The translations under genes were made by a program, and so were the position numbers. 64,000 nucleotides of DNA from contig QHUU01000063.1 in the NCBI GenBank assembly GCA_003222155.1, forward strand, positions 4,794-68,793. The letters run 5' to 3'. Numbering within the stretch: position 1 is the stretch's first letter; each line of letters begins with the position of its first letter. Source of the stretch: Gemmatimonadota bacterium (lineage in GTDB: Bacteria > Gemmatimonadota > Gemmatimonadetes > Gemmatimonadales > GWC2-71-9). The notes under the pieces were generated by a model. It saw only the letters and a program-made list of their open reading frames with translations, had not been told where the DNA came from and did no database searches. This document shows, one piece after another, positions 8,354 to 50,853 of the stretch.

Positions 8354-8375
8354 GCGACTCCGACCCTACCGACAC

Positions 8376-8406: not shown

Positions 8407-8436
8407 TTACCTTGCCCATCTCTAGCCTCAGCAGCC

Positions 8437-13126: not shown

Positions 13127-13128
13127 CC

Positions 13129-14589: not shown

Positions 14590-14609
14590 GCAGGCAAGGT
14601 TGGAATGCA

Positions 14610-14641
14610 ACGGAGGGGCGCAGCACGCTGCGCCCCTCCGT
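14610..14641. repeat. Palindromic REP-like element, family B copy 1
   Basis: ACGGAGGGGCGCAGCACGCTGCGCCCCTCCGT, a near-perfect palindrome between convergent genes. The core GGGGCGCAGCACGCTGCGCCCC recurs at 16238 and 22094. Confidence 0.7.
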
Positions 14642-14654
14642 GCTCTTGGTGCCT

Positions 14655-15077: not shown

Positions 15078-15105
15078 AGCGCACCTCGGAGAGGGACCCC
15101 CTACG

Positions 15106-24297: not shown

Positions 24298-24900
24298 GTG
24301 ACCCCGCCAAGGCGTCTCAGTCAAGAGCAAGAACACTCTTTGGTGCGCCGCCTCAAGGCGCGGGACGAGCACGCGCTCCAGGAATTATACGACGCGCTCG
24401 CACCCTGGGTCCTCGGCCTCGCCTATCGCATCCTGCACGACGAAGACGCGGCCGAGGAAGTAGTCGGTGACGTCTTCGTGAAAGTGTGGCGTGGCGTCCA
24501 CAAGCACGACCCGGACCGCGGTCCGCTGGTGCCGTGGATCCTATCCATCGCGCGTAACCGGGCGCTCGACGAGCTGCGGCGGCGTCAGCGGTGGTGGCGC
24601 AAGGCAGAAAGGTGGGGGCAGGCGCGGGGGGCGACGGGGGCGGGAGAGGAAGTCGCAAACCCGGGGCCGCACGAAGCCGCCGTTCCCGGGTGGCCGCTGC
24701 ACCGCGAGGTGCACGCCGCGCTCGCGACACTGCCGGACGAGCTGCGGCGCGTAGTGATGCTCGCGTATTTCGAAGGGCTGTCGCACAGCCAGATCGCGCG
24801 CCGCCTGCAGCAGCCTCTGGGGACGGTGAAAACGCGGCTGCGGGCGGCTCATCAGAAGTTGACGGACCAGCTGGCACATCTCAAGGATTGGCTGGAATGA
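24298..24900 (+). CDS. ECF-family RNA polymerase sigma factor
   Basis: Region 2 (YDALAPWVLGLAYRILHDEDAAEEVVGDVFVKVW) and region 4 (LPDELRRVVMLAYFEGLSHSQIARRLQQPLGTVKTRLR). GTG start. Confidence 0.9.
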   Translation: MTPPRRLSQEQEHSLVRRLKARDEHALQELYDALAPWVLGLAYRILHDEDAAEEVVGDVFVKVWRGVHKHDPDRGPLVPWILSIARNRALDELRRRQRWWRKAERWGQARGATGAGEEVANPGPHEAAVPGWPLHREVHAALATLPDELRRVVMLAYFEGLSHSQIARRLQQPLGTVKTRLRAAHQKLTDQLAHLKDWLE

Positions 24901-25481
24901 CGGACTGGTTGGGCATGTCGGTGCCTCCGCGGACGCCGCGCCCCGAGCTCAAGGGCCGGGTGCTGGCGCGCGCCCTGGCGCGCGGGCGGCGCTGGCCGTT
25001 GGCGCTGGCGGCGGCGCTCGTGGTCGTGGCGGGAGGAGGGGGGAGTCTGTGGTGGGCGCACGGCAGGATCGACGCGCTCGGTGCGGAGCGGGATCGGCTC
25101 GCGGCGCGGGTCGCGGCCCTCGAGGACACGGTCTCGAGCTTCATCCACGACCCCGCGACGCGACTCATCCAGGTTCCCGTCTCGACCGGGGGCCGTGTCG
25201 GGTCGGTGACGATCTTTGTCGACAGCACGCGGCACCGCTGGCTGGTGCGCTGCGAGGGCCTGGCCCCGAATGCCCGGGACCAGACCTACCAGTTGTGGTT
25301 CGTCACCGACAAGGGAATGCAGCCCGCGGCCCTGATGCTGATGGATCGGGACCAGCCCATGGTGATGGGGTTGCCGCTACCGCAGGCGGGGGAGCGCGTG
25401 ATGGGAGCGGCGATGAGCATCGAGCCGCGGGCCGGCTCGGCGAGTCCGAGCGGGCCCATCGTCTTCCGCGTGGGGCTTTAG
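24897..25481 (+). CDS. Anti-sigma factor, RskA-like C-terminal domain
   Basis: ATGA overlap with the sigma gene and one TM segment (WPLALAAALVVVAGG). QTYQLWFVTDKGMQPAALM resembles the anti-sigma-K (RskA) extracytoplasmic domain. Confidence 0.75.
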   Translation: MTDWLGMSVPPRTPRPELKGRVLARALARGRRWPLALAAALVVVAGGGGSLWWAHGRIDALGAERDRLAARVAALEDTVSSFIHDPATRLIQVPVSTGGRVGSVTIFVDSTRHRWLVRCEGLAPNARDQTYQLWFVTDKGMQPAALMLMDRDQPMVMGLPLPQAGERVMGAAMSIEPRAGSASPSGPIVFRVGL

Positions 25482-25972
25482 GGTCGCTTCCCCGCCAGAT
25501 CGTGGACGGTCTCGAGCTCCACGACCTTGAGGCGCCGCTGCCCCATCGGAAGGGCGGTGGTCACCGACTGCCCCACCTTGGCGCCCAGCAGGGCCTTGCC
25601 GAGGGGGGAAGCCATCGAAACGGGCGTTTCGTGCCCGTCGTCGTCGCCCTCGATGAACTCGCCCAGTGTGAGCGCGTACGTCTCGCGCTGCTTGGTGTCG
25701 ACGTCCTGCACCGTTACGCGGGAGCCGAACCCCACGCGGTCGCGCGGGATGTCGGACTCCTGGACGCTCGAGAGCTTGGAGAGGCGGAGCCGCAGGTGGC
25801 TCAAGCGCGAGGTGACGAACTGCTGGCGCTCGAGCGCCGCCTTGTATTCGGAATTCTCCCGCAGGTCGCCGTGCGCGCGCGCCCGCTCGATCTCCTTCGG
25901 CAGCACGAAGTTGATCTCGTGATTCAGGCGCTCGACCTCGGCCTGGAGGCGGTTCTTCAACTCGTCGATCAT
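25478..25972 (-). CDS. greA: Transcription elongation factor GreA
   Basis: N-terminal coiled coil with AHGDLRENSEYKAALERQ, and a C-terminal FKBP-like domain (VGFGSRVTVQDVDT). Confidence 0.95.
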   Translation of the reverse strand: MIDELKNRLQAEVERLNHEINFVLPKEIERARAHGDLRENSEYKAALERQQFVTSRLSHLRLRLSKLSSVQESDIPRDRVGFGSRVTVQDVDTKQRETYALTLGEFIEGDDDGHETPVSMASPLGKALLGAKVGQSVTTALPMGQRRLKVVELETVHDLAGKRP

Positions 25973-25992
25973 GGGGGAAAAAATAGCCTACT

Positions 25993-26016
25993 CCCCGGGC
26001 TTGCGCCCGGGGTCAG
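25993..26016. repeat. Palindromic REP-like element, family A copy 2
   Basis: CCCCGGGC TTGC GCCCGGGG TCAG in the greA/mrp divergent intergenic region. Confidence 0.7.
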
Positions 26017-26062
26017 TCCTTGCGACTTGGCGTCGTGGCGTCTGGCAACGCATTTTTCCCTC

Positions 26063-26857
26063 ATGCCCCTCAACATCCGCACCTATCACGAGCTGACCGA
26101 GCCGGATCGGTCCGGGCTTCCGGGCCAGATCGCGGCCCAGCGGCGCCGGGTGGCGGCGCGGCTCGCGGGCGTGGGGCGCGTGGTCGCCGTGATGAGCGGC
26201 AAGGGTGGCGTGGGGAAGAGCTTCGCCACCGCGGGGCTCGCCCGGGCTCTGGCGCGCGCAGGTCGGGCCGCGGGGGTGCTCGACGCCGATTTCAACGGAC
26301 CGACCATCCCCGCACTTCTCAGCCTCCCTGTCGCACGTTGCACGTTGCATGAGGATGGCATCGAGCCGGCCGTGAGCGCGGAAGGCGTGCGGTGTTTCTC
26401 CATGGCGCTGCTCCTCGAAGACGGCCGGCCGCTCGGGTTCCGGGGCCCGGAGGCGGATAGCCACGTGTGGCGCGAGACGCTCGAAGCCGCGGCGCTGCGG
26501 GAGTTCCTGGCCGACGTCGCCTGGGGCCCGCTCGATCGGCTGCTCGTCGACCTGCCGCCCGGGATCCAGCGGTTCCAGGAGCTCGCCGGGCTGTTGCCGG
26601 CGCCGCCGGCCGTGCTGACCGTGACCATTCCCACGGCGGAATCGCGCGATGCGGTGCGCCGCGCGATGCAGTTCGCCCGGGAGCGCCGCGCTGAGCTGCT
26701 CGGCGTGGTGGAGAACATGGTGGACGGTCCGTTCGCCGGCGGCGCGGGCGAAGACCTGGCACGCGAGTTCGGGGTGCCGCTGCTCGCACGCATCCCCTGG
26801 CACCCGACCCCGGACGTCTGGGAAGCGGTGGCGCGAAGATTGGAAGGCGGGTCGTGA
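26063..26857 (+). CDS. Mrp/NBP35/ApbC-family P-loop ATPase (Fe-S cluster carrier type)
   Basis: Deviant Walker A VAVMSGKGGVGKSF. Also DADFNGPTIP, LLVDLPPG and VVENM motifs. Confidence 0.85.
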   Translation: MPLNIRTYHELTEPDRSGLPGQIAAQRRRVAARLAGVGRVVAVMSGKGGVGKSFATAGLARALARAGRAAGVLDADFNGPTIPALLSLPVARCTLHEDGIEPAVSAEGVRCFSMALLLEDGRPLGFRGPEADSHVWRETLEAAALREFLADVAWGPLDRLLVDLPPGIQRFQELAGLLPAPPAVLTVTIPTAESRDAVRRAMQFARERRAELLGVVENMVDGPFAGGAGEDLAREFGVPLLARIPWHPTPDVWEAVARRLEGGS

Positions 26858-26860
26858 GAG

Positions 26861-26959
26861 TTCACACGCTGAAGGGTGTACCCGAAACGGCCCTGCCCTT
26901 AAGGGCAGCGCTTCACCGGGCCCAGGCTTCAGCCTGGGAATCAAGGGGGCGCGTGTGAA
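26861..26959 (+). promoter_or_regulatory. Structured intergenic leader (outer stem enclosing two hairpins) that occludes the downstream start codon
   Basis: Outer stem TTCACACGC (26861-26869) pairs with GCGTGTGAA (26951-26959). Inner hairpins CTGCCC-TTAA-GGGCAG (26893-26908) and CCCAGGC-TTCA-GCCTGGG (26921-26938). The GTG start at 26955 sits in the outer stem. Confidence 0.4.
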
Positions 26960-27404
26960 GTTCCTCTGCGTCGACTGCGACCGGCAGATGCTGTTCGAGG
27001 AGCGGCAGCTCCCCGGGGACGGCACGCTCGCGGCGGCGTTCCGGTGCCCCCAATGCGGTCGCGCCGTCGGGCTGTTGACCAATCCGATGGAGACGCAGCT
27101 CGTGGCGTCGCTGGGCGTAAAGATCGGCGGGACGACGATCGACCCGCAGCCGCTCGAGACGGTGCGGGGGATGGTCACGACGGGGCGAGACGAAGCCTTC
27201 GCGGAGGCGGCGGGGGACGGGGGACGAGGGACGGGTGTCGTCTGGTCGGTCGACGCTCAGGAGCGCCTGGCCCGGGTCCCCAACTTCGTGCGCGGGATGG
27301 TGAAGAAGATCTACGCCGACTATGCCAAGGATCGCTGCATTGCGGAGATCACCCCGGCCGTGATGGACACCGCGCGGAGCGAGCTCGGGCTCGAGGGCAT
27401 GTGA
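26955..27404 (+). CDS. Zinc-ribbon + PCP_red (BchB/ChlB C-terminal-like) domain protein
   Basis: RBS AAGGGGG. CVDC...CPQC zinc ribbon. C-terminal VVWSVDAQERLARVPNFVRGMVKKIYADYAKDRCIAEITPAVMD matches the W-x-x-x-A-x-x-x-L-x-x-[IV]-P-x-F-[VA]-R pattern of PCP_red. Confidence 0.7.
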   Translation: MKFLCVDCDRQMLFEERQLPGDGTLAAAFRCPQCGRAVGLLTNPMETQLVASLGVKIGGTTIDPQPLETVRGMVTTGRDEAFAEAAGDGGRGTGVVWSVDAQERLARVPNFVRGMVKKIYADYAKDRCIAEITPAVMDTARSELGLEGM

Positions 27405-27676
27405 GCCTGGACGAGCGCACAGTCCACGGGCTGCGCATCGTGATCGACCGCGAGCAGTGCGTCGGGTTCGGCGACTGTGCGACGGCAGCCCCCGAGGGTT
27501 TCAAATTGGACGCCGACACCATCGCCACCTTCCTCGAGCCGGAGCGGGTGGAGCGCGAGCGCCTGCTGCGGGCGTGTGACGCCTGTCCGGTAGATGCCAT
27601 AACCGTTTGGGACTCAGAGGGTAGGCAGCTGGTGCCAGGACAGTCCACGGCTAGACGCACAGACGCACCGCGGTGA
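27401..27676 (+). CDS. Small single-cluster ferredoxin
   Basis: GTG overlapping the upstream stop (ATGTGA). CVGFGDC ... CDACPVDAI cysteine pattern. Confidence 0.75.
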   Translation: MSLDERTVHGLRIVIDREQCVGFGDCATAAPEGFKLDADTIATFLEPERVERERLLRACDACPVDAITVWDSEGRQLVPGQSTARRTDAPR

Positions 27677-27746
27677 ATAGGGAGTAGTCGGCAGGAGCAT
27701 CCGCCCACTCGGCCCTGTTCACCACTGTGCGTCCGTTGCGTCTAGC
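27650..27746. repeat. Long-range inverted repeat spanning the ferredoxin stop and intergenic spacer (terminator/insulator candidate)
   Basis: GCTAGACGCACAGACGCAC (27650-27668) versus GTGCGTCCGTTGCGTCTAGC (27727-27746). The arms are complementary apart from one extra base, separated by about 58 nt. Confidence 0.5.
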
Positions 27747-27772
27747 TGTTGCATCTTCTGTTCGCTGCTTAC

Positions 27773-27801
27773 TTGACAGCCTGTCTCGTCGTTCACATAC
27801 T
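27773..27801 (+). promoter_or_regulatory. Sigma-70-like promoter candidate for the USP/radical-SAM/bd-like operon
   Basis: TTGACA (27773-27778), 17-nt spacer, CATACT (27796-27801), about 20 nt upstream of the GTG at 27821. Confidence 0.4.
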
Positions 27802-27820
27802 CGCCGCGCCCAAAGGGGAG

Positions 27821-29794
27821 GTGCCGGTGTACCGCGAGATCTTCGTCCCGGTCGACAACTCGAGTCCTTCGGACTGGGCAGTCGACCGGGCCATCGAGTT
27901 GTGCCGCCAATCCGACGGCCGCATCACCGGAAACCACGTTTATGCCGCCCGCCTCCACGACGTCCGCTTTCGCCAGCTCGAAACCGGGCTCCCGGCCCGG
28001 TTCCAGACTCCCGACGAGATCAAGAAACAGCGCAAGATCCACGACAAGCTGATCGAAAAAGGCCTGCAACTGATCGCGGACAGCTTTCTCGACCAGCTGG
28101 GGAAGCGCTGCGAGGCGGCCGGCGTGCGTCTGACTCGCCAGCTGTTGGAAGGCATCAACTACGAGGAGATCGTCAACGAGGTGAACCGCGGCGCCGGCCG
28201 GCTGCCGGGGCTGATCGGCTTCGACCCCGACCGCGCGGCGGGCTACGACGGGGGCGACAAGACGCGCTCGGACGTGAAGGTGGGTGAGAATGGCCGGCTC
28301 GTGGCCGAAGACGAGGACGCGGCCGCGCGGCTTGCCGGCTCGTCGGGCCGCCAGTACGACCTGCTCGCGATCGGCGCGCACGGTCTGGGCCGTCAGCCCT
28401 ACTCGCAGCTCGGGGGCGTGGTGTCGCGCGTGCTGCGCGGCATCGAGAAGGACGTGCTGCTGGTGCGCGACGAGCGGCCGTTCGCGGGCGGGCGGTTCCT
28501 GGTGTGCGTGGACGGGTCGTCCTACGGCTATCGGGCGATGCGGCTGGCGCTCGAGCTGGCCCAGGCGTTCGGCGGGTCGCTGTTCGTGTGCAGCGCGTTC
28601 GACGTGGAGTACCACCACGTTGTGTTTCACAACATCAAGGATGTTCTCTCCTATCAAGCGTCCAAAGTCTTCAAGTTCGAGGAGCAGGAGGAGCTGCACA
28701 ACAACATCATCGACAAGGGCCTCCTGAAGCTGTGCCAGGCGAACCTGAAGCGCGCCGAGGTGATGGCGCAGGAGTTCCCCGGCGTCTCTCTCACGACGCA
28801 GATCCTGGTGGGCAAGCCGTTCCAGGTGATCATGCAGTGGGCCGAGGAGATCAAGCCGTCGCTGCTGGTGCTGGCGCGGCACGGCGCCCATCGGATCGAA
28901 GGCACCGAGCTCGGTAGCCAGGCGGAGAACCTCGTGCGGCTTGCGCCTTGCAACGTGCTGCTCGCGGGGACGGGCGGGGTGAGGCCCGAGGACATCCCCT
29001 GGATCGAGGAAGACGGGGTGGCGGGGCTGCCCTGGGCGCCGGAGGCCGAGGTGCGGATTCTGCGGGTGCCGCCGTTCGCGCAGGGGATCGCGCGCCGGGC
29101 CGTGGAGGAATACGTGCTGGAGCAGACGCACGGAGAGCCCGCGACGGTCACCAACAAGTGGCTCGACGAGGCGATCCGGAAGCTTCTGCCCACCCACATG
29201 CAGCTCATCATGGGCATCGGGACGGCCGAGGAGATCGCGCTCGCGGAAGTGAAGGCGCAGGAGCAAATGAAGGCGACGAAGGTGCATGGCTGCGACGCCG
29301 ACCCCCAGCCCCTGACCCCTGAAGTTGAAGTGAAATGCCCAGTCACGGGCGCTGTGAGCCGCCGTCCGCGCACCGCGGCCGACCCGATCGTCTGGACCGA
29401 GGAGGCCTGGCAGCGGCTGCAGCTGGTGCCCCTCATCGCCCGGCCGCTGGCGCGCAACACGGTCGAGCGGTTCGCGCGCGGGCACGACATCTGGCGCGTG
29501 AGCACCGGCGTGATGGACGAAAACAAACAGGCGATGATCGCGGCCGACGAGTTCGACGTGGACACGATGATGGTGATGTTCCAGGAGCTGCGCGCCAAGC
29601 AGATCCGCGCCGAGGCCGAAGGGCGCGATGGATTGAGTCCCGAGATGCGGGCGTTCATCGAGGAGGCGAAAGCGCAGGGGATCACGCGTTGCCCCATTCG
29701 GGACATCGAGGAAAAGATGGGGAAGTGCCCGGTCGACTTCGGGGGCCTGACGCCCGAGGAGGCGAAGCAGGCGGTGGAGAAGCTGTTGCAGTGA
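27821..29794 (+). CDS. Tandem universal-stress-protein (USP) domains fused to two PCP_red domains
   Basis: USP motifs (YREIFVPVDNS...; LLAIGAHGLGRQPYSQLGGVVSRVLRGIEKDVLLV; FLVCVDGS...LVLARHGAHRIEGTELGSQAENLVRLAPCNVLL). Then LPWAPEAEVRILRVPPFAQGIARRAVEEY and IVWTEEAWQRLQLVPLIARPLARNTVERFAR. Start at 27821 or 27827 (GTG); the ORF-track start at 27749 is unlikely. Confidence 0.8.
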   Translation: MPVYREIFVPVDNSSPSDWAVDRAIELCRQSDGRITGNHVYAARLHDVRFRQLETGLPARFQTPDEIKKQRKIHDKLIEKGLQLIADSFLDQLGKRCEAAGVRLTRQLLEGINYEEIVNEVNRGAGRLPGLIGFDPDRAAGYDGGDKTRSDVKVGENGRLVAEDEDAAARLAGSSGRQYDLLAIGAHGLGRQPYSQLGGVVSRVLRGIEKDVLLVRDERPFAGGRFLVCVDGSSYGYRAMRLALELAQAFGGSLFVCSAFDVEYHHVVFHNIKDVLSYQASKVFKFEEQEELHNNIIDKGLLKLCQANLKRAEVMAQEFPGVSLTTQILVGKPFQVIMQWAEEIKPSLLVLARHGAHRIEGTELGSQAENLVRLAPCNVLLAGTGGVRPEDIPWIEEDGVAGLPWAPEAEVRILRVPPFAQGIARRAVEEYVLEQTHGEPATVTNKWLDEAIRKLLPTHMQLIMGIGTAEEIALAEVKAQEQMKATKVHGCDADPQPLTPEVEVKCPVTGAVSRRPRTAADPIVWTEEAWQRLQLVPLIARPLARNTVERFARGHDIWRVSTGVMDENKQAMIAADEFDVDTMMVMFQELRAKQIRAEAEGRDGLSPEMRAFIEEAKAQGITRCPIRDIEEKMGKCPVDFGGLTPEEAKQAVEKLLQ

Positions 29795-31065
29795 ACCTCG
29801 TCCCGCACGTGATCGCCTGGAATCTGACCAGGCGCTGCAACCTCGAGTGCGCGCATTGCTACATCTCGGCCGGACCGAGCGAGAGCGCCGCCGCCGAGCT
29901 CGACACGGCGGCGTGCGTCGACATCGTGGACCAGCTGCTCGCGGTGAATCCCGCGCCACTCCTCATCCTGTCGGGAGGTGAGCCGTTGTTGCGGCCGGAC
30001 CTGGGCGAGATCGCCCACTACGCGTGCGCCAACGGCGCGACAGTGGTGGTCGGGACCAACGGCACGCTGCTCACCGAAGAGCGCATCGCGGCGCTCACGG
30101 ACGCCGGCGTGCGGGGCGTCGCGGTCAGCGTCGACTCGCTGCGTCCGTCGTATCACGACAACTTCCGCCACGGCAGAGGCGCTCTCGCCGATGTGCAGGC
30201 GGCGCTCGCGCGGCTGCGCGCGGCACGGCTCGACTTCATCGTGCAGACGACGGTGACCAAGGGCAACCGCGCCGAGCTGGAGCGCTTGGTGGCGTGGTCG
30301 GCAGACGAAGGGGCCGTCTCGTTCAACTGCTACTTTCTGGTGCCGACCGGCCGTGGCGCGGCGCTCTCGGACCTGACGCCGGCGGACTACGAGGCGGTGC
30401 TCGCCGACCTCGCTCGCTGGGAGGGCGCCTATCGGGGCCGCATGCTGGTGCGGGCGAAGTGCGCCCCGCATTTCATGCGCCTCGTGCATCAGACCGACCC
30501 CGAGTCCCCGGTCCTGAACTACGAGACCCGCTGTCCCTGCGGCACGCAGTACTGCCGCATCACCCCGGACGGCAAGGTCACGCCGTGCCCGTACCTGCCC
30601 GAGGTGGCCGGGGATCTGCGGTCGCAGCGCTTCGCCGACGTGTGGCGGTCGTCGCCCCTGTTCCGGCGCCTGCGGGAGGGCCCGCTGCAGGGGAAGTGCG
30701 GGGCGTGCGAGTACCGCGCGGTGTGCGGCGGGTGCCGGGCGCGCGGGTTCGCGCTCGAGGGGGACGTGCTCGCCGCCGATCCGTCGTGCCTTTATCAACC
30801 GACGGGCGACACGGCCGTCATCGAGCCGGCCCGCGCCGTGCGCTACGGCGGCGACTTTCAACCGGCGCTCGCGTGGACGCCCGCGGCGCGCGAGCGCGTG
30901 GCGCGCATCCCCTCGTTCGTGCGGGGGGTCGTGATGGAGCGGGTGGAGGCGTGGGCGCGCCGCCAGGGACGGCGCGAAGTCACACCCGAGCTGCTCGCGG
31001 AAGTGCGCCGCGCGCTGCCGATCGACTTTTCCAAGAAGCGCCCGTTCTTCGTGGCTGACAGCTGA
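29791..31065 (+). CDS. Radical SAM/SPASM enzyme (AhbC/AhbD/NirJ-like) with C-terminal PCP_red domain
   Basis: GTGA overlap with the upstream gene. CNLECAHC radical-SAM cluster motif and LILSGGEPLLRPD. SPASM cysteines CPCGTQYC ... CGACEYRAVCGGCRARG. Tail LAWTPAARERVARIPSFVRGVVMERVEAWARRQG. Confidence 0.9.
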   Translation: MNLVPHVIAWNLTRRCNLECAHCYISAGPSESAAAELDTAACVDIVDQLLAVNPAPLLILSGGEPLLRPDLGEIAHYACANGATVVVGTNGTLLTEERIAALTDAGVRGVAVSVDSLRPSYHDNFRHGRGALADVQAALARLRAARLDFIVQTTVTKGNRAELERLVAWSADEGAVSFNCYFLVPTGRGAALSDLTPADYEAVLADLARWEGAYRGRMLVRAKCAPHFMRLVHQTDPESPVLNYETRCPCGTQYCRITPDGKVTPCPYLPEVAGDLRSQRFADVWRSSPLFRRLREGPLQGKCGACEYRAVCGGCRARGFALEGDVLAADPSCLYQPTGDTAVIEPARAVRYGGDFQPALAWTPAARERVARIPSFVRGVVMERVEAWARRQGRREVTPELLAEVRRALPIDFSKKRPFFVADS

Positions 31066-32780
31066 TGACCGACGGCGCCCTGCTGCTGCAAGCCGCCGCC
31101 GACTCGACTCGCGCCTACGGCGAGTTCCCTGTGATCGGCGCGCGGGCGTTCATATGGATCACGGCCGAAGTGCACCTGATGTTCGCCGCCTTCGTGCTCG
31201 GCGTGCCGATGTTCGCCGTGGTGACGGAGGCGATCGGCATCTTCGGCGGCGACGAGCGCTACGACCGGCTGAGCAAGGAGTTCACGCGCCTCCTGCTCGT
31301 GGCGTACAGCGCCACGGCGATCTGGGGCGCGATGCTGGTGTTCGGCCTGTCGACGCTGTATCCCCGGTTCTGGGCGTACCTGACCGCGATTTTCGCGCCG
31401 TCGATGTGGGCCTACGCGGCACTGTTCCTCGTCGAGTCGTTCACGCTGTACCTCTATTACTACGGCTGGGACCGCTGGAAGAAAGGCCGGGCCAAGCTGG
31501 GCCACTGGACGCTCGGCATCCTGCTCAACCTGTGGGGCACGATCGTGATGTTCATCGCGAACTCGTGGCTCACGTACATGATGTCGCCGCCCCGGGATAT
31601 CACGCCCACCACCGACCCGACCACGATCAAGCTGTGGCACGCGATCGCCAACGCGACGTGGATGCCGATCAACGTGCACCGGGTGATCGCCAACGTCGTC
31701 TTCGGCGGCGCGATCGTGGGGGCGTATGCGAGCTATCGCTTCCTCGCGGCACAGAGCGACGAGGAGCGGGCGCACTACGACTGGATGGGCTACGTCGGGA
31801 ACTTCATCGCGATGTCGGCCCTGATCGTGCTGCCGTTCGCCGGCTACTGGCTGGGGCGCGAGATCTATCAGTACGACCAGTCGATGGGCATCACGATGAT
31901 GGGCGGGTTCATGAGCTGGTTGTGGGTGATCCAGGCGTTCCTGATCGCGGTGCTGTTCCTGACGGGGAACTACTACCTGTGGATCGGGATGGGCCGCATT
32001 CCCGGCGCGGAGCGGTTCCGGCCCTACACCAAGTACCTGCTGATCGTGCTGGTGCTCGGCGCCATCGTGTGGGGCACGCCTCACACGATGATCGCCGACT
32101 CGAAGGAGCTGGCGGCGATGGGCGGATCGCACCACCCGTTCCTGGGCGCCCTGGGCGTGATGAGCGCCAAGAACACTGCCGTGAACCTGATGATCCTGAC
32201 CACGTTCCTCTCGTTCCTGCTGTACCGGCGCGCCAACACCCGTCCGGTGGTCCCGTGGGCGCGCGGCGGGACCATCATCCAGGGGGCGATGTTCGCCCTG
32301 GCGGCCGGCGTCGTGCTGTTTTACGGCATCCGTGGCTATTTCGTCGAGGCCATCGTCCGCATCGGCTTCAGCGTGTATCAGGTGCTCGCCGTCCTGAGCT
32401 GCATCGTGTTCGTGACGGTGATCGACGTGTTGATGGCTCGCGGCGCGCAGTCGCTCGGCACGATCCAGTGGGGCAAGATGCCGCCGCGGTCGCAATACGC
32501 GCTGTTCATCCTCGCGGTGACGTTCACGTGGCTCATGGGGCTGATGGGGTTCGCCCGCTCCGGCATCCGCCAGTACTGGCACGTGTGGCAGGTGATGCAG
32601 GACACGAGCAAGTACGCCGCCACCCCGGCGCTCGGCTACGCGTCCAAGATGATCAGCCTGTGCGTGCTGATCTTTCTCACGCTCGTCGCGTTCGTGTTCT
32701 GGCTCGGCGGGCTGGCGGAGAAGTCCACGTTCGTCGCCTCCGGCGAGCGCCAGGGAGGGGGCCGCCATGTGGGCCACTAA
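31065..32780 (+). CDS. Cytochrome bd subunit-I-like (CydA-like) membrane protein, no Q-loop, no CydB partner
   Basis: 1-nt overlap (TGATG) with the radical SAM gene. CydA-like motifs VHLMFAAFVLGVP, LFLVESFTLYLYYYGWDR, KLGHWTLG, IANSWLTYMMSP, INVHRVIANV. Polytopic throughout. Confidence 0.8.
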   Translation: MTDGALLLQAAADSTRAYGEFPVIGARAFIWITAEVHLMFAAFVLGVPMFAVVTEAIGIFGGDERYDRLSKEFTRLLLVAYSATAIWGAMLVFGLSTLYPRFWAYLTAIFAPSMWAYAALFLVESFTLYLYYYGWDRWKKGRAKLGHWTLGILLNLWGTIVMFIANSWLTYMMSPPRDITPTTDPTTIKLWHAIANATWMPINVHRVIANVVFGGAIVGAYASYRFLAAQSDEERAHYDWMGYVGNFIAMSALIVLPFAGYWLGREIYQYDQSMGITMMGGFMSWLWVIQAFLIAVLFLTGNYYLWIGMGRIPGAERFRPYTKYLLIVLVLGAIVWGTPHTMIADSKELAAMGGSHHPFLGALGVMSAKNTAVNLMILTTFLSFLLYRRANTRPVVPWARGGTIIQGAMFALAAGVVLFYGIRGYFVEAIVRIGFSVYQVLAVLSCIVFVTVIDVLMARGAQSLGTIQWGKMPPRSQYALFILAVTFTWLMGLMGFARSGIRQYWHVWQVMQDTSKYAATPALGYASKMISLCVLIFLTLVAFVFWLGGLAEKSTFVASGERQGGGRHVGH

Positions 32781-33576
32781 CCTGAAGGTCGTCGGGATCG
32801 TGCTGGGGACCCTGGCACTCTATACGCTCATCGCCAACAAGATTCCGCAGGTGCAGTCCGAGGTGCCGCAAACCCTCACCCTGGGGGCGAACGTCACGCC
32901 CGAACAGCTGGTGGCGGCGGGAGAGAAGGTGTTCAACGGCATCGGCGGCTGCCCCACCTGCCACGGGCTCGGCACGCGCGCGCCCAATCTCCTCACGGAC
33001 GAGAAGGGCACCGGACCGATCGGCGCCCGCTGCGGCAAGCGGGAAGCCGGCAAGAGCTGCAAGCAGTATCTGTACGAGTCGCTCGACAATCCGACCGCGT
33101 TCGTCGTGACGGGCTATCAGCCGATCATGCCGGTCATGACCAGGCAGCTCTCGCCAGAGCAGATCTGGTCGGTGATCGCCTTCTTGGAGTCGCAGGGCGG
33201 CACCGTGGACGTAACAGGGGACGACGTAGCCAAAGCGAAGCAACTGACCCCGGGCGCAAGCCCGGCGAATTCGGGAGGTAGTCCTGGTGGTGGGGCCTTT
33301 GCCGCCGGCAGCACGGACCCCAAAGCCATCATCCAGGCGGCGGGGTGCCTCGCGTGCCACAAGCTCGACGGCCAGGGACAGGTGATCGCGCCCGATCTCA
33401 CGCATGTGGGCGCGCGCCGGGACGCGGAATCGATCCGCAAGAAGATCCTGGATCCGGCGTCGTCGATCGCGAAGGGCTACGAGAAGCTCGCCGGGATCAT
33501 GCCCAAGACGTTCGGCACCATGATGAGCGCCGCGCAGCTCGAAGCGCTGGTGCAGTATCTGGCGGGGCACAAGTGA
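32767..33576 (+). CDS. Membrane-anchored dihaem c-type cytochrome
   Basis: N-terminal TM segment and two CxxCH motifs (CPTCH, CLACH), each followed by a Met-containing distal region. 14-nt overlap with the upstream gene. Confidence 0.85.
   Translation: MWATNLKVVGIVLGTLALYTLIANKIPQVQSEVPQTLTLGANVTPEQLVAAGEKVFNGIGGCPTCHGLGTRAPNLLTDEKGTGPIGARCGKREAGKSCKQYLYESLDNPTAFVVTGYQPIMPVMTRQLSPEQIWSVIAFLESQGGTVDVTGDDVAKAKQLTPGASPANSGGSPGGGAFAAGSTDPKAIIQAAGCLACHKLDGQGQVIAPDLTHVGARRDAESIRKKILDPASSIAKGYEKLAGIMPKTFGTMMSAAQLEALVQYLAGHK
33244..33265. repeat. REP-like element family A, partial copy 4, embedded in the cytochrome c inter-domain linker
   Basis: CTGACCCCGGGCGCAAGCCCGG is identical over 22 nt to 45522-45543. 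It is translated as ..LTPGASPAN.. Confidence 0.6.
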
Positions 33577-34391
33577 CCGCACCCGCGCTGCGGCGCTCCG
33601 CCACGCACCCGTTCTGGCAGGCGGTGGGAATTCTCGTTATCGCCTACATCGTAGTCGTGTGGGTGGTGCCGCTGCTCCCGGGCAGCGCCATCGTCCCGAA
33701 GAGCGTGGTGCTCCAATACATGGTCACGGTGCTGGTCGGCGTGCTCATCTACGTGAGCGACAACGAGGAACGTTGGGCCCGCTTCAAAGAGCCGATCGAG
33801 GCCGTGCTGGCCGAGCCGCGGCTCCGGGTGGTGCGGGCCGTGCTGCTCGTCGTGGTGACGGCGCTGGTCGGGCTCGTGGCGTACGGGCAGGTGGCCACCA
33901 CCGTCGCCGCCCCACCCAATCTCCGCTCGATCCACCCCGCCCCGCCCGCGGAAATCACGTTCCGGGGCAGGTCGATCACGCTGACAGGGCTCGAGAACCC
34001 GCTGCGCGCGCACCCGGAGTCGCTCGCCCTCTACCTGGCCGAGGGGAAGGGCGTCTACTACCGCAACTGCCTGCCCTGTCACGGGGACCACCTCGACGGT
34101 CAGGGGCACTTCGCATCGGGGTTCAATCCACTGCCGGCGAACTTCCAGGACAACGGCACCATCGCCCAGCTCACGGAGAGCTTCGTGTTCTGGCGCGTGG
34201 CCAAGGGCGGGCCGGGTCTGCCGCGTGAGGGCACGCCGTGGAACTCGGCGATGCCGAAGTGGGAGGACTTTCTCACGGAGCGCGAGATCTGGTCGGTGAT
34301 CCTGTTCCTGTACGATCAAACCGGGTGGACTCCACGAACCTGGGAGAAAACGGGGACGGGGGACGGGGGACGGGGGACGGGGCATGATTGA
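33573..34391 (+). CDS. Polytopic membrane-anchored monohaem c-type cytochrome
   Basis: GTGA overlap with the upstream gene. Three or four TM segments, then CLPCHGDHLDG and a ...NSAMPKWEDFLTEREIWSVILFLY cytochrome c fold. Confidence 0.8.
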   Translation: MTAPALRRSATHPFWQAVGILVIAYIVVVWVVPLLPGSAIVPKSVVLQYMVTVLVGVLIYVSDNEERWARFKEPIEAVLAEPRLRVVRAVLLVVVTALVGLVAYGQVATTVAAPPNLRSIHPAPPAEITFRGRSITLTGLENPLRAHPESLALYLAEGKGVYYRNCLPCHGDHLDGQGHFASGFNPLPANFQDNGTIAQLTESFVFWRVAKGGPGLPREGTPWNSAMPKWEDFLTEREIWSVILFLYDQTGWTPRTWEKTGTGDGGRGTGHD

Positions 34392-34452
34392 CGGGCTTCT
34401 GGTCCTCGCGCTCCTCGCACCACTCGTCCCCCGTCCCCCTTCCCTCGTCCCG
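34351..34452. repeat. (GGGGACG)x4 heptamer array plus inverted (CGTCCCC-like)x4 array forming a long hairpin over a gene junction
   Basis: Left arm 34352-34379 is four exact GGGGACG units. Right arm 34425-34452 is CGTCCCC CGTCCCC CTTCCCT CGTCCCG. The 42-nt loop holds the ATG at 34384 and the TGA at 34389-34391. Confidence 0.8.
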
Positions 34453-35961
34453 CTGCAGGACACGACGAAAGGGAAGGCAGTTTATGTGAAGTGGTGCGCC
34501 GGTTGCCATGGCGATGGCGGCGCGGGCGACGGCCCCTCCGCCGCGCACATGCTTCCCCGGCCCCGCAACTTCACCGGCGCGATCTATAAGATCCGCAGTA
34601 CGGCCTCGGGTCAGCTGCCGACCGACGCCGACCTGATGCGGGCGATCGACGAAGGGCTGCCCGGGAGCGCGATGCCGGCGTGGAAGGGGCGCCTGTCGGA
34701 CGGCGAGCGGCGCGACGTGGCCGGGTACATCAAGACGTTCTCCGCGTTCTTCGCGGACACGAGCCAGCACGCGGCGGCGCTCAAGTTCTCGGGCGAGCCG
34801 GGCGGTGGCACCGGCGCGGCGGCGCTCAAGACCGGGCGCCAGTTCTACGATTCCATCGGGTGCCGCAAGTGTCACGGCGACCAGGGGCGGGGAGACGGGC
34901 CGTCCGCGCCCACGCTCAAGGACGACGCCGGGTTTCCCATCTTCGCGGCGGACCTGCATCAGAGCTGGCGGTTTCGCGGGGGGGGCAGTGCGGCGGACAT
35001 CTACCACCGGCTGCGCACCGGGCTCGACGGGACACCGATGCCCTCGTTCTCGGACCTGATCGACCAGAAGTTCCTGACCGACGAGCAGCTGTGGCGGCTG
35101 GCCCAGTACGTACGCTCGCTCTCGCCGCCCGACCCGCCCGAGGTGCGCGACGTCATCCATGCGCCGCAGATCGCCGGCCCCGCGCCGGTCTCGCCCGACG
35201 ACTCGGCGTGGGCGCGCGCCGACCGCTACTGGTTCCCGCTCGTCGGGCAGGTGGTGCGCAAGGCGCGCTGGTTCGCGCCCGCGGTGACGGGTGTGTGGGT
35301 GCAGGCGCTGCACGACGGCCACACCCTCGCGCTGCGGTTGAGCTGGGACGATCGCACCCAGAGCCCTGACAGCGCGTGGCTCGGGTTCGAGCAGCGCGTG
35401 CTCGAGACCGTCGCCGGCGACGACTCGGGCCCCCCCAAGGCGGAGCCGTGGCCCGACCAGCTGGCGGTGCAGTTCCCCCGCCGTCTCCCGGAGGGTTCGG
35501 GGGGCATGGAGCGCCCCTACTTCTTGATGGGAAGCGAGACCGACCCGGTGTACCAGTGGCGCTGGACCAGCCGGCCGCGCAAGAGCGTCGCGGGCCTGGC
35601 CCGGGGCATCGAGCGGTTCGACACGCTCCCCGGGGCGTTGGCGGGGCAGGCGAGCTTCGATCACGGCGAGTGGCGGCTGGTGTTCACGCGCGCCCTTGCC
35701 ACGCCGGATACCGCCAACGAAGTTCAGCTTGAGGCCGGCCGGGCGATTCCGGTGGCCTTCTTCGGCTGGGACGGCTCCAGCGGGGAACACGGCTCGCGCA
35801 TGGCGGTGAGCACCTGGTACTTCCTGGCGCTCGATCGGCCCACGCCGCCGGGCGTGTTCATTTCTCCGGTGCTGGCCATGCTCGTGACGCTGGGACTGGG
35901 GCTCGTGGTCGTCCGGCGGGCCCGGCGGCGCGGTACGGCGCGTGCAGGGAGACAGCGATAG
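34384..35961 (+). CDS. Dihaem cytochrome c fused to an EB_dh/DOMON-like (ethylbenzene-dehydrogenase gamma-type) haem-binding domain, C-terminal TM anchor
   Basis: CAGCH and CRKCH motifs. Then WVQALHDGHTLALRLSWDD...DQLAVQFP...YFLMG...YQWRW...GEWRLVFTRAL...VAFFGWDGSSGEHGSRMAVSTW, as in EB_dh-family domains. Terminal TM segment ISPVLAMLVTLGLGLVVV. Confidence 0.8.
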   Translation: MIDGLLVLALLAPLVPRPPSLVPLQDTTKGKAVYVKWCAGCHGDGGAGDGPSAAHMLPRPRNFTGAIYKIRSTASGQLPTDADLMRAIDEGLPGSAMPAWKGRLSDGERRDVAGYIKTFSAFFADTSQHAAALKFSGEPGGGTGAAALKTGRQFYDSIGCRKCHGDQGRGDGPSAPTLKDDAGFPIFAADLHQSWRFRGGGSAADIYHRLRTGLDGTPMPSFSDLIDQKFLTDEQLWRLAQYVRSLSPPDPPEVRDVIHAPQIAGPAPVSPDDSAWARADRYWFPLVGQVVRKARWFAPAVTGVWVQALHDGHTLALRLSWDDRTQSPDSAWLGFEQRVLETVAGDDSGPPKAEPWPDQLAVQFPRRLPEGSGGMERPYFLMGSETDPVYQWRWTSRPRKSVAGLARGIERFDTLPGALAGQASFDHGEWRLVFTRALATPDTANEVQLEAGRAIPVAFFGWDGSSGEHGSRMAVSTWYFLALDRPTPPGVFISPVLAMLVTLGLGLVVVRRARRRGTARAGRQR

Positions 35962-35989
35962 CATGCGGGCCTTTCATCGAGGAGGCAGG

Positions 35990-36727
35990 ATGGGGAAGCT
36001 CGGAGCTGTGGCGGCGACGGGAGTGGCGGTGCTGGTGCTGGCGCTCGGGGGGTGGATGCGCGCGCCCCTCCCCGCCGCACAGGGGGGCGGGACCATCAGC
36101 GGCAAGGTGAAGTTCACCGGCGCGAAGCCCGCCATGCCGAAGATCGACATGAGCGAGGAGCCGAAGTGCAAGGCGAAGTACACGGCCGCGCCGCCCACAG
36201 ACGAGGCCGTGGTGGTGAACGCGAACGGCACCCTCGCCAACGTGTTCGTCTACGTGAAGTCGGGCCTCCCGGCGAGCTACAAGGCGCCCGCGCCCGCCGG
36301 GCCGGTGACGCTCGACCAGGACGGCTGCCGCTACCATCCGCACGTGTTCGGCATCCTGGTCGGCCAGAACCTCGCCATCAAGAACTCCGACGGCATCCTG
36401 CACAACATCAAGGCGAAGGGGACGAAGAATCGTCCGTTCAACATCAGCCAACCGACGACCATGACGTCGGAGCGGACCTTCACGGCTCCCGAGGTGATGG
36501 TGCCGCTCGAGTGCAACGTGCACGGCTGGATGCACGCGTGGCTGGGCGTGTTGCCGCACCCGTTCTTCGCGGTCTCGGGCACGGACGGCAGCTTCACGAT
36601 CAAGGGGCTCCCGCCCGGGACCTATACGATCGAGGCCTGGCAGGAGAAGTACGGCGCGCAGACCGCGACCGTGACGGTGGCGGGGAGTGAGACGAAGACG
36701 GCGGATTTCGGTTTCGCCGCCAAGTGA
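35990..36727 (+). CDS. Cupredoxin (type-1 copper site) with carboxypeptidase-regulatory-like C-terminal domain
   Basis: GGAGG RBS and a signal anchor. Copper ligand pattern ILHNIKA ... CNVHGWMHAW (H...C-x2-H-x2-M). Then FTIKGLPPGTYTIEAW. Confidence 0.75.
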   Translation: MGKLGAVAATGVAVLVLALGGWMRAPLPAAQGGGTISGKVKFTGAKPAMPKIDMSEEPKCKAKYTAAPPTDEAVVVNANGTLANVFVYVKSGLPASYKAPAPAGPVTLDQDGCRYHPHVFGILVGQNLAIKNSDGILHNIKAKGTKNRPFNISQPTTMTSERTFTAPEVMVPLECNVHGWMHAWLGVLPHPFFAVSGTDGSFTIKGLPPGTYTIEAWQEKYGAQTATVTVAGSETKTADFGFAAK

Positions 36728-36746
36728 ACTAACCGAGGAGCGCCCG

Positions 36747-37418
36747 ATGCATTGGTGGCTGCCGCTCAAGGGTTCGACGTTCGCGGGGGAGGTGGACGGC
36801 CTGTTCCTGGCGATCACGATCATCACCGGGATCGCGTTCGTGCTGGTCGAGGTGGGGCTGATCTGGTTCGTCGTGAAATACCGGCAGCGGCCGGGCCGGA
36901 AGGCCTTCTATACGCACGGGAGCACCCGCGCGGAAGTGATCTGGACCGCGATCCCCGCGGTGACCATGGTGGCGCTGGGCCTCATCAGCAACCACTACTG
37001 GGTCCGGATCAAGGGGCGCAACAGCGTGCCCCCGAACGCCTACCCGATCGCGATCCACGCCAAGCAGTTCGAGTGGCAGGTCACCTATCCGGGGCCGGAC
37101 GGGAAGCTGGGGACGAGCGACGACTTCACCGTCCGCAACCAGCTGCACGTGCCCGTCGGACGGCCCATCGTCGTCCGCCTCACCTCGGAAGACGTGATCC
37201 ACTCGTTCTTCGTTCCCGTGTTCCGGGTGAAGCAGGACGCGGTTCCGGGGATGGACATCAATGCCTGGTTCCAGGCGACGGTGCCGGGCACCTATGAGCT
37301 GGGCTGCGCCGAGCTGTGCGGGTTGGGGCACTACCGCATGCGGGCGCAGGTGTTCGTGCAAAGCCAGGAAGACTACGACGCCTGGACGAAGCAGGCTGCT
37401 CAGGAGGCCTCGTCATGA
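36747..37418 (+). CDS. coxB: Cytochrome c oxidase subunit II (CuA)
   Basis: Two N-terminal TM segments. VIHSFFVP and the CuA site CAELCGLGHYRM. Confidence 0.9.
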   Translation: MHWWLPLKGSTFAGEVDGLFLAITIITGIAFVLVEVGLIWFVVKYRQRPGRKAFYTHGSTRAEVIWTAIPAVTMVALGLISNHYWVRIKGRNSVPPNAYPIAIHAKQFEWQVTYPGPDGKLGTSDDFTVRNQLHVPVGRPIVVRLTSEDVIHSFFVPVFRVKQDAVPGMDINAWFQATVPGTYELGCAELCGLGHYRMRAQVFVQSQEDYDAWTKQAAQEASS

Positions 37419-39181: not shown

Positions 39182-39198
39182 CCGAGGGGAGAGGGACG

Positions 39199-39876
39199 AT
39201 GACGCACGCAGCCGCCACCGTCGACCAGATGCGGCCCCCGTACCCGGCCGAGCGGGGGCTCGACGTCTACAACACGAAGCTCGGGATGTGGGTGTTCCTC
39301 GCGTCGGAGGTGATGTTCTTCGCCGCGTTGATCGGGACCTACATCATCCTGCGGTTCGGCGCCCCGGGCGAATGGGCCAAGCCGGGGATCGTCTTGAACA
39401 TCAAGATCACCGCCTTCAACACGTTTCTGCTGATCTGCTCGAGCGTGTCGATGGTCAAGGCGTACGCGGCCATCCAGGACGGCGACCCGAAGAAAATGCG
39501 CTTCTGGCTGTTGCTGACGATCCTGGGCGGCGCGACCTTCGTGGGGATTCAGGTCTACGAGTACATTCACCTGATCGAGCACGGCTTCGTGCCGAGCGGC
39601 GTGCGCGAGGGCAGCGAGCTGGCGGAGCTGGTCGCGAAGGGACAGTTGCCCGCCGCGACGATGGGCCTGTACGGGTCCACGTTCTTCACCATGACCGGGT
39701 TCCACGGCTTTCACGTCACGTGCGGCGTGATTTCGATGACCTACCTGTACCTGACGAAAGCGCTGCCCGGCAAGTACACGAAGCAGAGCTACGGGGGGAT
39801 CGAGACGGTCGGCCTGTACTGGCACTTCGTCGACCTGGTATGGATCATCCTGTTCACGATCGTCTACCTCATTTGA
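39199..39876 (+). CDS. coxC: Cytochrome c oxidase subunit III
   Basis: KLGMWVFLASEVMFFAALI, FFTMTGFHGFHVTCG and WHFVDLVWI motifs. Confidence 0.9.
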   Translation: MTHAAATVDQMRPPYPAERGLDVYNTKLGMWVFLASEVMFFAALIGTYIILRFGAPGEWAKPGIVLNIKITAFNTFLLICSSVSMVKAYAAIQDGDPKKMRFWLLLTILGGATFVGIQVYEYIHLIEHGFVPSGVREGSELAELVAKGQLPAATMGLYGSTFFTMTGFHGFHVTCGVISMTYLYLTKALPGKYTKQSYGGIETVGLYWHFVDLVWIILFTIVYLI

Positions 39877-39889
39877 GGGCGGGGGGGCC

Positions 39890-40165
39890 ATGGAGACCGC
39901 GCACAAGCGTCCCAACTACATCCTGATCTGGGTGTACCTGGCGGTCCTCACGGCCGCCGAGCTGGCGCTCGCGTTCAAGCTGCCGATCTCACCCAACATC
40001 AAGCTCTTGCTGTTGTTGTTCCTGGCGATCTGGAAGGCGGCGCTGGTCGGGCTGTTCTTCATGCATCTGAAATTCGAGCGCTGGAACCTGCGGATCATGG
40101 CGATCATCCCCTTGCCGCTGGCCGTGATCTTCATCCTGGCCGGCATGTCGGAGCACATCTGGTAG
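39890..40165 (+). CDS. Cytochrome c oxidase subunit IV (bacterial COX4_pro type)
   Basis: 91 aa with three TM segments. LAIWKAALVGLFFMHLKFE motif. Confidence 0.8.
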   Translation: METAHKRPNYILIWVYLAVLTAAELALAFKLPISPNIKLLLLLFLAIWKAALVGLFFMHLKFERWNLRIMAIIPLPLAVIFILAGMSEHIW

Positions 40166-40203
40166 CGTTTCTCGAGCTGACGAAGCCGCGCATCACGCAG
40201 CTG

Positions 40204-48694: not shown

Positions 48695-48698
48695 GGGC

Positions 48699-50828: not shown

Positions 50829-50853
50829 ACGTCGTCCTTCAACGGAGGTGGGT

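Follow-up and report, generated by a model that had tools for sequence, protein, structure and literature searches.

Why does a gene for a radical-SAM enzyme, together with genes for a set of soluble partner proteins, stand directly in front of the genes of a cytochrome bd-like membrane complex? The question is raised by a 64-kb stretch of DNA from a soil Gemmatimonadota bacterium (the window; ~69% G+C; coordinates are window positions unless a locus is named), in which this junction lies inside a one-strand supercluster of respiration and haem genes of about 19 kb, from 26063 to ~45513. The best overall explanation in our view, with a probability of roughly 50%, is an oxygen-independent haem supply of the AhbD type that is served by new PCP_red, USP and Mrp helper proteins and wired to an OR-N2-type bd-like complex and an aa3 oxidase. 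The module probably serves the co-encoded complexes by handling an iron tetrapyrrole; that the reaction is specifically the conversion of coproheme to haem b is a tentative proposal, for which the odds are a little short of even.

The module in front of the bd-like gene consists of five genes:

26063–26857, + strand, Mrp/NUBPL-family P-loop ATPase (Pfam ParA/NUBPL, PF10609, E 6e-44)
26955–27404, + strand, 149-aa protein with an N-terminal CxxC...CxxC zinc ribbon and a C-terminal PCP_red domain (PF08369, E 2e-11)
27401–27676, + strand, 91-aa single-cluster ferredoxin, CxxFxxC...CP (Fer4_13, E 4e-11; Fer4_15)
27821–29794, + strand, 657-aa cytoplasmic protein with two USP and two PCP_red domains (Usp, PF00582, E 3e-33; PCP_red, E 9e-15)
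29791–31065, + strand, radical-SAM/SPASM enzyme with a C-terminal PCP_red domain (Pfam Radical_SAM, SPASM, PCP_red)

They are followed by the genes of the membrane module:

31065–32780, + strand, CydA-like polytopic subunit, OR-N2 type (PF01654 Cyt_bd_oxida_I, E 8.5e-20)
32767–33576, + strand, N-terminally anchored dihaem cytochrome c (CPTCH, CLACH; Pfam; one N-terminal hydrophobic segment)
33573–34391, + strand, monohaem cytochrome c with three transmembrane segments (CLPCH; Pfam; three hydrophobic segments)
34384–35961, + strand, dihaem cytochrome c with an EbdC-like EB_dh domain (E 1.9e-16) and a C-terminal transmembrane anchor at residues 491–509 (CAGCH, CRKCH)
35963–36727, + strand, anchored periplasmic cupredoxin-like protein with a C-terminal CarboxypepD_reg Ig-like domain (Pfam, C-terminal domain only)

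An earlier annotation of part of this DNA from its letters and translations (the sequence-only reading) had predicted most of these domains, and Pfam recovered every one of them: ParA/NUBPL, four PCP_red, two USP, Radical_SAM, SPASM, Cyt_bd_oxida_I, cytochrome c and EB_dh. The five CxxCH motifs were likewise borne out in the translations. A hydropathy scan found no hydrophobic segments in the five upstream proteins, which are for this reason considered cytoplasmic; the proteins encoded downstream are polytopic or membrane-anchored.

The six genes from 27821 to 35961 are linked by stop/start overlaps, including at the junction into the bd-like gene, and a check of the sequence found the overlaps as they had been described: GTGA at 29791, TGATG at 31063–31067, a 14-nt overlap at 32767, GTGA at 33573 and ATGATTGA at 34384. 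The unit does not end at 35961 as first thought. The fifth gene of the membrane module begins one nucleotide past the stop at that position, coxBACD and ctaB follow, and the same strand continues through haem-synthesis genes to ~45513, with gaps between called genes of no more than 38 nt across 27821–41010. Upstream, the sequence ATGTGA at 27399–27404 is present as reported, but its ATG is the final codon of the Zn-ribbon/PCP_red gene and not the start of the ferredoxin gene, which is the GTG at 27401 and gives a further GTGA overlap with the stop of the preceding gene. The Zn-ribbon/PCP_red gene itself starts at GTG 26955, with AAGGGGG in front.

The radical-SAM enzyme is placed by its profile scores in the AhbD/NirJ2/TIGR04053 clade. 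The radical-SAM motif CNLECAHC and the SPASM cluster CGACEYRAVCGGCRARG are present in its translation, and both the CxxxCxxC cysteines (C16, C20 and C23) and the full SPASM set (C224, C248, C250, C266, C303, C306, C312, C315 and C333) are conserved. Among NCBIfam models it scored 291 bits on AhbD (TIGR04545), 290 on NirJ2, 257 on TIGR04053, 185 on NirJ and 155 on AhbC, and the kinship with tetrapyrrole enzymes suggested in the sequence-only reading thus found support, the first three being the closest curated families. NC10 relatives and solitary copies of the enzyme gave an identical family ranking, with relatives scoring 248–273 bits on TIGR04053. All three curated cut-offs are nevertheless missed (500 bits for AhbD, 500 for NirJ2 and 395 for TIGR04053), and the AhbD score is not AhbD-specific, because true TIGR04053 members from Thermus and Halogeometricum, used for calibration, reach ~350 bits on the AhbD model. 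The failed cut-offs and the calibration therefore point to a separate subfamily within the clade, not an AhbD equivalog.

An AlphaFold2 model built with 47 sequences has a confident SPASM core (residues 1–321), a 37-residue linker (322–358) with a predicted local distance difference test (pLDDT) score below 50, and a three-helix PCP_red domain (359–411). In this model the PCP_red domain is tethered to the enzyme through a disordered linker; this copy aligns with ChlB residues 454–508 of PDB entry 2xdq. The fold of the model is closest in the PDB to PqqE, SkfB, SuiB and anSME, and no AhbD or NirJ entry was among the PDB matches of the enzyme sequence or model. Such folds would suit an enzyme that modifies, by cross-linking or oxidation, a bd-like or cytochrome c subunit or a small partner protein, and on a Halogeometricum plasmid (locus L089) a gene annotated as 'CGCGG family rSAM-modified RiPP protein' (9066–9392) lies two genes from a related TIGR04053 gene. 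However, the enzyme has no N-terminal peptide-recognition domain, its radical-SAM motif beginning at residue 16; the cluster holds no precursor-like small open reading frame (ORF), its two small genes being those for the ferredoxin and the Zn-ribbon/PCP_red protein; and peptide-maturase models score at most ~148 bits versus ~290 for the haem enzymes. Protein or peptide maturation is thus a very unlikely role for the enzyme.

In public data, several window proteins are identical to entries of a soil Gemmatimonadetes metagenome-assembled genome (PYP58546–PYP58552, DMD44_07260–07300), each annotated 'hypothetical protein'. That annotation starts the radical-SAM gene at a long upstream ORF (29335–31065, 576 aa, PYP58548), ~460 nt of which coincide with the USP gene. 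The GTG start at 29791 is supported because most of the listed cluster members are 424–425 aa long.

How firmly the enzyme is tied to the bd-like gene was followed in a locus scan covering one genome per species, with a 10-sequence bd-like alignment as query. The best 80 loci were kept, a set that leaves out more distant relatives (by the published distribution including Nitrospirota and Planctomycetota), and the window proteins were mapped onto the loci by tblastn. Each of the 45 Gemmatimonadota loci for which 5.3 kb or more of upstream sequence is available has genes for the Mrp-like, Zn-ribbon/PCP_red, USP/PCP_red and radical-SAM proteins 5′ of the bd-like gene, and 44 of these loci also have the ferredoxin gene; the radical-SAM gene is immediately 5′ of the bd-like gene in 63 of 64 Gemmatimonadota loci. 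On the other side, the three cytochromes, the cupredoxin-like gene, coxB and coxA are found in 43 of the 44 Gemmatimonadota loci with at least 8 kb downstream. The order differs in NC10/Methylomirabilales loci: USP-PCP_red, radical SAM-PCP_red, (unknown gene), Mrp, Zn-ribbon-PCP_red, bd-like gene, cytochromes. One NC10 contig has the cupredoxin-like gene and coxB downstream; in some NC10 loci the module stands beside the bd-like gene and no cox gene was detected in the flanks covered. In Rokubacteria loci the operon begins at the bd-like gene and runs into cox, ctaA and ctaB. A contig collinear with these (CoxB and CoxA 66–82% identical) carries the USP-PCP_red, radical SAM-PCP_red and Mrp genes 3′ of coxD; this third arrangement is deduced, because the bd-like genes of that contig fall outside the stretch covered.

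Could the upstream genes be housekeeping or stress genes that merely came under the same promoter region as the respiratory genes, with no functional tie to them? A 145-nt gap holding a promoter-like site precedes 27821, and the 97-nt spacer 3′ of the Mrp gene is not conserved, both of which would fit such an arrangement. Yet the four protein types recur by the bd-like cluster in three gene orders, in two phyla and a Rokubacteria-collinear metagenomic contig, and the stop/start overlaps run without a break through 27821–35961 into and beyond the bd-like gene. Furthermore, a hidden Markov model (HMM) built from the PCP_red domains of the cluster gave four matches and no more when run against the 64 kb translated in six frames, all within three cluster genes. 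Mere co-regulation is barely credible against this background.

The opposite possibility is that the tie is exclusive. In this case the radical-SAM enzyme, with the PCP_red domains as carriers, would make a non-standard haem from haem or coproheme for the OR-N2 active site, in the manner of the nir operons, whose NirJ makes the haem d1 that the neighbouring nitrite reductase uses. The likeness to NirJ is that a related radical-SAM/SPASM enzyme stands in the operon of the haem-using enzyme, and several observations favour it: the enzyme and bd-like genes are coupled by a 1-nt stop/start overlap and adjoin in nearly all the Gemmatimonadota loci; the module stays by the bd-like gene in the NC10 loci in which no cox gene was detected; the enzyme forms a distinct subfamily under every curated cut-off; and the enzyme and the USP-PCP_red protein are strongly constrained, with the conservation of the latter tracking the bd-like subunit (mean identity among distant Gemmatimonadota 73.0% for USP-PCP_red and 75.5% for the bd-like subunit, 68.3% for CoxA). 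On the other hand, the score on the NirJ model is only 185 bits, and the window contains no NirD/L/G/H/F/N-type genes. Orthologues 66–69% identical to the NC10 module enzyme stand where the surrounding 10 kb hold no bd-like gene. Solitary copies were found in an Entotheonellaceae genome and in several other contigs, one of them 5.7 kb from a bd-like gene. Conversely, bd-like clusters occur without the module nearby, as in Myxococcota, where no radical-SAM module lies within 10 kb; the Rokubacteria-like contig has the module after cox and not beside a bd-like gene; and the nearest relatives with genetic data are plain haem b synthases. The linkage of the module with the bd-like gene is therefore real and repeatedly kept, across phyla and through changes of gene order. 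Not all bd-like complexes show it, however, and the enzyme is not bound to it.

The solitary copies fit a general enzyme and so make it less likely that the cofactor is meant for the bd-like complex alone. Of the proposal that the module makes, modifies or delivers a tetrapyrrole cofactor for that complex, membership of a haem-enzyme clade and the conserved link stand; the dedication does not stand as firmly. A dedicated haem-tailoring enzyme, the chief rival to the reading favoured here, is, on our analysis, unlikely. The most far-reaching form of the idea, a dedicated maturation machine that would insert a new modified haem into OR-N2, with PCP_red as a new class of haem carrier and the USP-PCP_red protein as a cytoplasmic assembly or regulatory subunit, we regard as quite unlikely. 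Small ORFs 5′ of the solitary radical-SAM genes were considered as partners and set aside, as none resembles a cluster protein; three of them are mutually similar with signal-peptide-like hydrophobic N-termini, and the fourth differs.

A plainer reaction is suggested by the genes that follow the membrane module:

~36747–37418, + strand, coxB, with the CuA motif C-x3-C-x3-H-x2-M and without a haem c domain (Pfam COX2)
~37316–39181, + strand, coxA (Pfam COX1, 494 bits)
39199–39876, + strand, coxC (Pfam COX3)
39890–40165, + strand, coxD (Pfam COX4_pro)
40204–41010, + strand, haem O synthase, UbiA family, CtaB-like (PF01040, E 4e-55)
41427–42524, + strand, ChdC/HemQ-Rieske fusion (Pfam Chlor_dismutase and Rieske)
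42508–43539, + strand, UroD (Pfam URO-D)
43529–44449, + strand, ferrochelatase (Pfam Ferrochelatase)
~44446–45513, + strand, CgoX/HemY-like oxidase (Pfam Amino_oxidase)

The coxBACD genes (36747–40165) encode an A-family haem-copper oxidase (aa3), and 41427–45513, separated from the haem O synthase gene by 416 nt, is predicted from its domains to encode a complete coproporphyrin-dependent (CPD) haem pathway. Because an aa3 oxidase, a haem O synthase and the full CPD pathway including ChdC lie directly downstream, AhbD-type decarboxylation of coproheme is the simplest reaction for the enzyme. The coproheme decarboxylase ChdC encoded at 41427–42524 bears at its C terminus a fused Rieske [2Fe-2S] domain, which might supply electrons or oxidant; we know of no described Rieske fusion to ChdC.

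We propose that the radical-SAM enzyme would decarboxylate coproheme to haem b without oxygen, as an anaerobic or micro-oxic counterpart of the ChdC-Rieske protein encoded 10 kb downstream, and that its purpose would be to cover the high haem requirement of the complexes transcribed with it. From motifs and domains we estimate this requirement at ~8 to 9 haems for the bd-like complex, to which haem a for the aa3 oxidase, via CtaB, has to be added. The ferredoxin may donate or accept electrons. Of the four PCP_red domains, one belongs to the enzyme, on its linker, and three to two partners; they may bind the tetrapyrrole or dock partners for its hand-off. The USP protein, with its Cys-Pro motifs, may sense nucleotide and/or haem; and the Mrp-like protein would be an assembly ATPase. 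On the periplasmic side, the five His/Met c-haems, the EbdC-like domain and the cupredoxin-like protein could form an electron wire into the haem site of the CydA-like subunit, which appears to keep the active-site His, the b-haem His and one proton-channel Glu and to lack the canonical quinol loop. The complex would be expressed together with an aa3 oxidase that has no haem c on its subunit II.

A precedent for such a division of labour exists in Haloferax volcanii, where deletion of HVO_2144 (ahbD) abolished anaerobic growth, protohaem rescuing dimethyl sulfoxide respiration fully and denitrification partially; there the ChdC-type PitA serves aerobically and ahbD is the anaerobic counterpart. 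Reviews describe AhbD in CPD organisms as an oxygen-independent alternative that replaces or complements ChdC. On the Halogeometricum plasmid (L089) a TIGR04053 gene (6968–8080) lies inside a nirK/norB/halocyanin cluster, and from this common nirK, norB and halocyanin context we infer that it is the orthologue of HVO_2144. A TIGR04053 radical-SAM gene is likewise found inside a nirS/norB cluster on a Thermus plasmid (L088, 6974–8101). The window enzyme resembles the Haloferax AhbD in being a radical-SAM/SPASM protein of the same clade, in standing in a respiratory cluster with blue-copper proteins and in coexisting with a ChdC-type enzyme. It differs from AhbD in scoring under the cut-offs and in carrying PCP_red on a flexible linker, and enzymes of its kind in respiratory clusters are always accompanied by USP-PCP_red, Zn-ribbon-PCP_red and Mrp; its host cluster, moreover, is aerobic (bd-like and aa3) and not one for denitrification.

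Several points weigh against an AhbD-type haem supply. The missed cut-offs are one and the Myxococcota clusters without the module another. To our knowledge, characterised AhbD systems need no PCP_red, USP or Mrp partners. It is also odd that an oxygen-independent haem synthase should be co-transcribed with oxygen reductases, and the constraint on the USP-PCP_red protein, which judged by the identities given above exceeds that on CoxA, appears to be more than a simple supply role explains. Finally, the published descriptions of bd-like clusters that we consulted make no mention of a radical-SAM module, the term 'radical SAM' being absent from two of them. Literature searches for bd-like with radical SAM, or for AhbD with Gemmatimonadota, gave nothing relevant.

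The membrane module is, as judged from its genes, an OR-N2-type bd-like complex, a kind that has already been described. The CydA-like gene is one of a large family (7,841 relatives among 8,000 candidates scored), and the absence of CydB from the cluster agrees with the earlier description of a CydB-less CydA-like subunit. Alignment to solved CydA structures, covering approximately residues 19–269, equates H37 with E. coli H19, E124 with E107 and H205 with H186. H37 is found in 79 of 81 sequences, and all 81 have Y117, E124, H147, H205, H357 and H506. OR-N2 has been defined by Tyr at E99, Glu at E107, His at H126 and H186 and 14 helices (Murali, Gennis and Hemp, 2021), and the spacing of Y117, E124, H147 and H205 fits the OR-N2 row of supplementary table 6 of that work; our strict hydropathy scan found 10 segments in the CydA-like subunit, compared with the 14 helices described. 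OR-N2 operons typically include several cytochromes c and an EbdC homologue, with the electron donor unclear (Murali, Gennis and Hemp, 2021). The window cluster is alike in its CydA-like subunit, its residue pattern, its several cytochromes c and EbdC homologue and its lack of CydB, but differs from published OR-N2 clusters in forming one operon with aa3, in having the radical-SAM/PCP_red module in front and in having no nitrite oxidoreductase. In the dihaem cytochrome c at 32767–33576 the CxxCH motifs and M121 and M245 are conserved; the protein encoded at 34384–35961 scored 84 bits on DMSO_red_II_gam, under the cut-off.

The gene at 35963–36727 is the fifth of the bd-like module, and its product may hold a type-1 copper site. 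H147 and the C184-x2-H187-x2-M190 set, type-1-copper-like, reach 90% conservation or more across 57 sequences. The copper assignment is tentative because no cupredoxin match was found in Pfam or in a PDB sequence search, which matched only the Ig-like domain. In a Myxococcota locus (L079) the cupredoxin-like gene travels with the bd-like genes, with no cox gene detected in the flanks covered; this locus has two divergent paralogous bd-like/cytochrome c/cupredoxin-like clusters, at 3406–9535 (− strand) and 10001–15498 (+ strand).

Related bd-like clusters are known from Nitrospira, Nitrospina, Kuenenia and Ca. Manganitrophus (TO_1), and the Kuenenia cluster includes a uspA gene. The 14-helix 'bd-like oxidase' that Lücker et al. 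described in nitrite oxidisers and anammox bacteria has no quinol loop; cupredoxin-like and zinc-finger proteins go with it, and its role might resemble that of alternative complex III. The window cluster shares with these the cupredoxin-like partner, the zinc-finger protein and the USP gene. Two NC10/Methylomirabilis-type contigs have an alternative complex III upstream in divergent orientation, and we have down-weighted the bd-like complex as a complex III stand-in: it is not simply a replacement, because a true alternative complex III adjoins the same cluster there. In layout, the window resembles the superclusters of alternative complex III and caa3 oxidase, a multi-haem membrane complex standing directly 5′ of an A-family oxidase on the same strand, although the proteins are unrelated.

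The sequence-only reading knew of no comparable system; the bd-like complex with several cytochromes c and an EbdC-like protein proved to be OR-N2 (Murali et al., 2021), while the set of helpers is undescribed. All four PCP_red domains pass the Pfam gathering cut-off of 32.5 bits, with 44.1 in the 149-aa protein, 54.9 for the two copies in the USP protein and 39.6 in the radical-SAM enzyme. They resemble in this the C-terminal domain of BchB/ChlB (PF08369) but differ from it in context: there is no BchN, BchB core or BchL, and the domain is detached, on USP, Zn-ribbon and radical-SAM proteins in a non-phototrophic setting. A literature search on PCP_red or PF08369 outside BchB/ChlB found no relevant account.

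In the USP-PCP_red protein, conservation is 90% or higher at 292 of the 657 positions. Its USP match scored 115.8 bits; set against the ATP-binding motif G-x2-G-x9-G-(S/T), the first domain has a conserved G185-x2-G188-x9-G198-G199 and the second is degenerate. Three Cys-Pro motifs (KCPV at 506, RCPI at 624 and KCPV at 636; pattern K/x-C-P-V/Y, R-C-P-I, x-C-P-V), which we take to resemble haem-regulatory motifs, are kept across Gemmatimonadota and are missing from the NC10 version, which instead carries a third PCP_red domain and a rubredoxin-like ribbon. The C-terminal tail was considered as a degenerate third PCP_red domain, a notion that an HMM search did not support. The zinc-ribbon cysteines C5, C8, C31 and C34 of the 149-aa protein are at least 90% conserved in 50 sequences, and C20, C26, C59 and C62 of the ferredoxin are conserved.

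The Mrp-like ATPase has the deviant Walker A motif GKGGVGKS and scored 146 bits on MrpORP and 99 on ApbC, both far under the cut-offs. The C-x2-C cluster ligands after ENM are missing from the window protein and from the near-clade loci that have the gene (within L002–L019), and are found in NC10 loci and in most of the more distant Gemmatimonadota loci in which the ENM anchor was located. Because this motif is missing, Fe-S carriage by the window homologue is doubtful, and so, for this genome, is the supply of Fe-S clusters by Mrp that had been suggested. The gene is kept at 63–91% identity in the clade despite the loss of the motif.

What is new here is a PCP_red-tethered radical-SAM subfamily, its conserved USP, Zn-ribbon and Mrp partners, and the union of this module with an operon for OR-N2 and aa3. 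Already known are the OR-N2 family, which is described although biochemically uncharacterised, and the presence of an AhbD-type enzyme in a respiratory cluster with ChdC. OR-N2 bd-like complexes are common in soil bacteria and are also found in nitrite oxidisers, anammox bacteria and manganese oxidisers, and a cytoplasmic haem module coupled to the complex offers an experimental way into its cofactors, ordinary or tailored haem. The PCP_red/USP/Zn-ribbon/radical-SAM set may represent a system for haem hand-off or sensing. If coproheme decarboxylation to haem b is indeed the reaction, the pairing of an anaerobic AhbD with an aerobic ChdC would extend to Gemmatimonadota and Methylomirabilota, and haem supply would be wired directly to the expression of respiratory complexes.

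A few features around the genes remain to be described. An Rfam search of the whole 64-kb window gave no match. In the spacer that separates the Mrp and Zn-ribbon/PCP_red genes, two perfect hairpins at 26885–26945 (GCCCTGCCC-TTAA-GGGCAG and CCCAGGCT-TC-AGCCTGGG) were considered as a conserved element and ruled out, being common only to the closest relative (L002). The promoter-like site in the gap before the USP-PCP_red gene, for which the evidence is weak, is the following:

27773–27801, + strand, promoter-like site TTGACA-17-CATACT, just 5′ of the USP-PCP_red gene

It is the sole match in 25400–41000, where 1.2 are expected by chance, and its CATACTCGCC element was found again, at varying positions, in several close relatives. 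Downstream of the haem genes and a transketolase gene, genes for a TonB-dependent receptor and a pyrroloquinoline quinone (PQQ)-dependent dehydrogenase occupy 48642–52599, with no evident link to the cluster. On the upstream side, greA is divergent from the Mrp gene, and just upstream on the − strand lie genes for an extracytoplasmic function (ECF) sigma factor and an RskA-type anti-sigma factor (24298–25481 and 25478–25987), a pair that could regulate the cluster.

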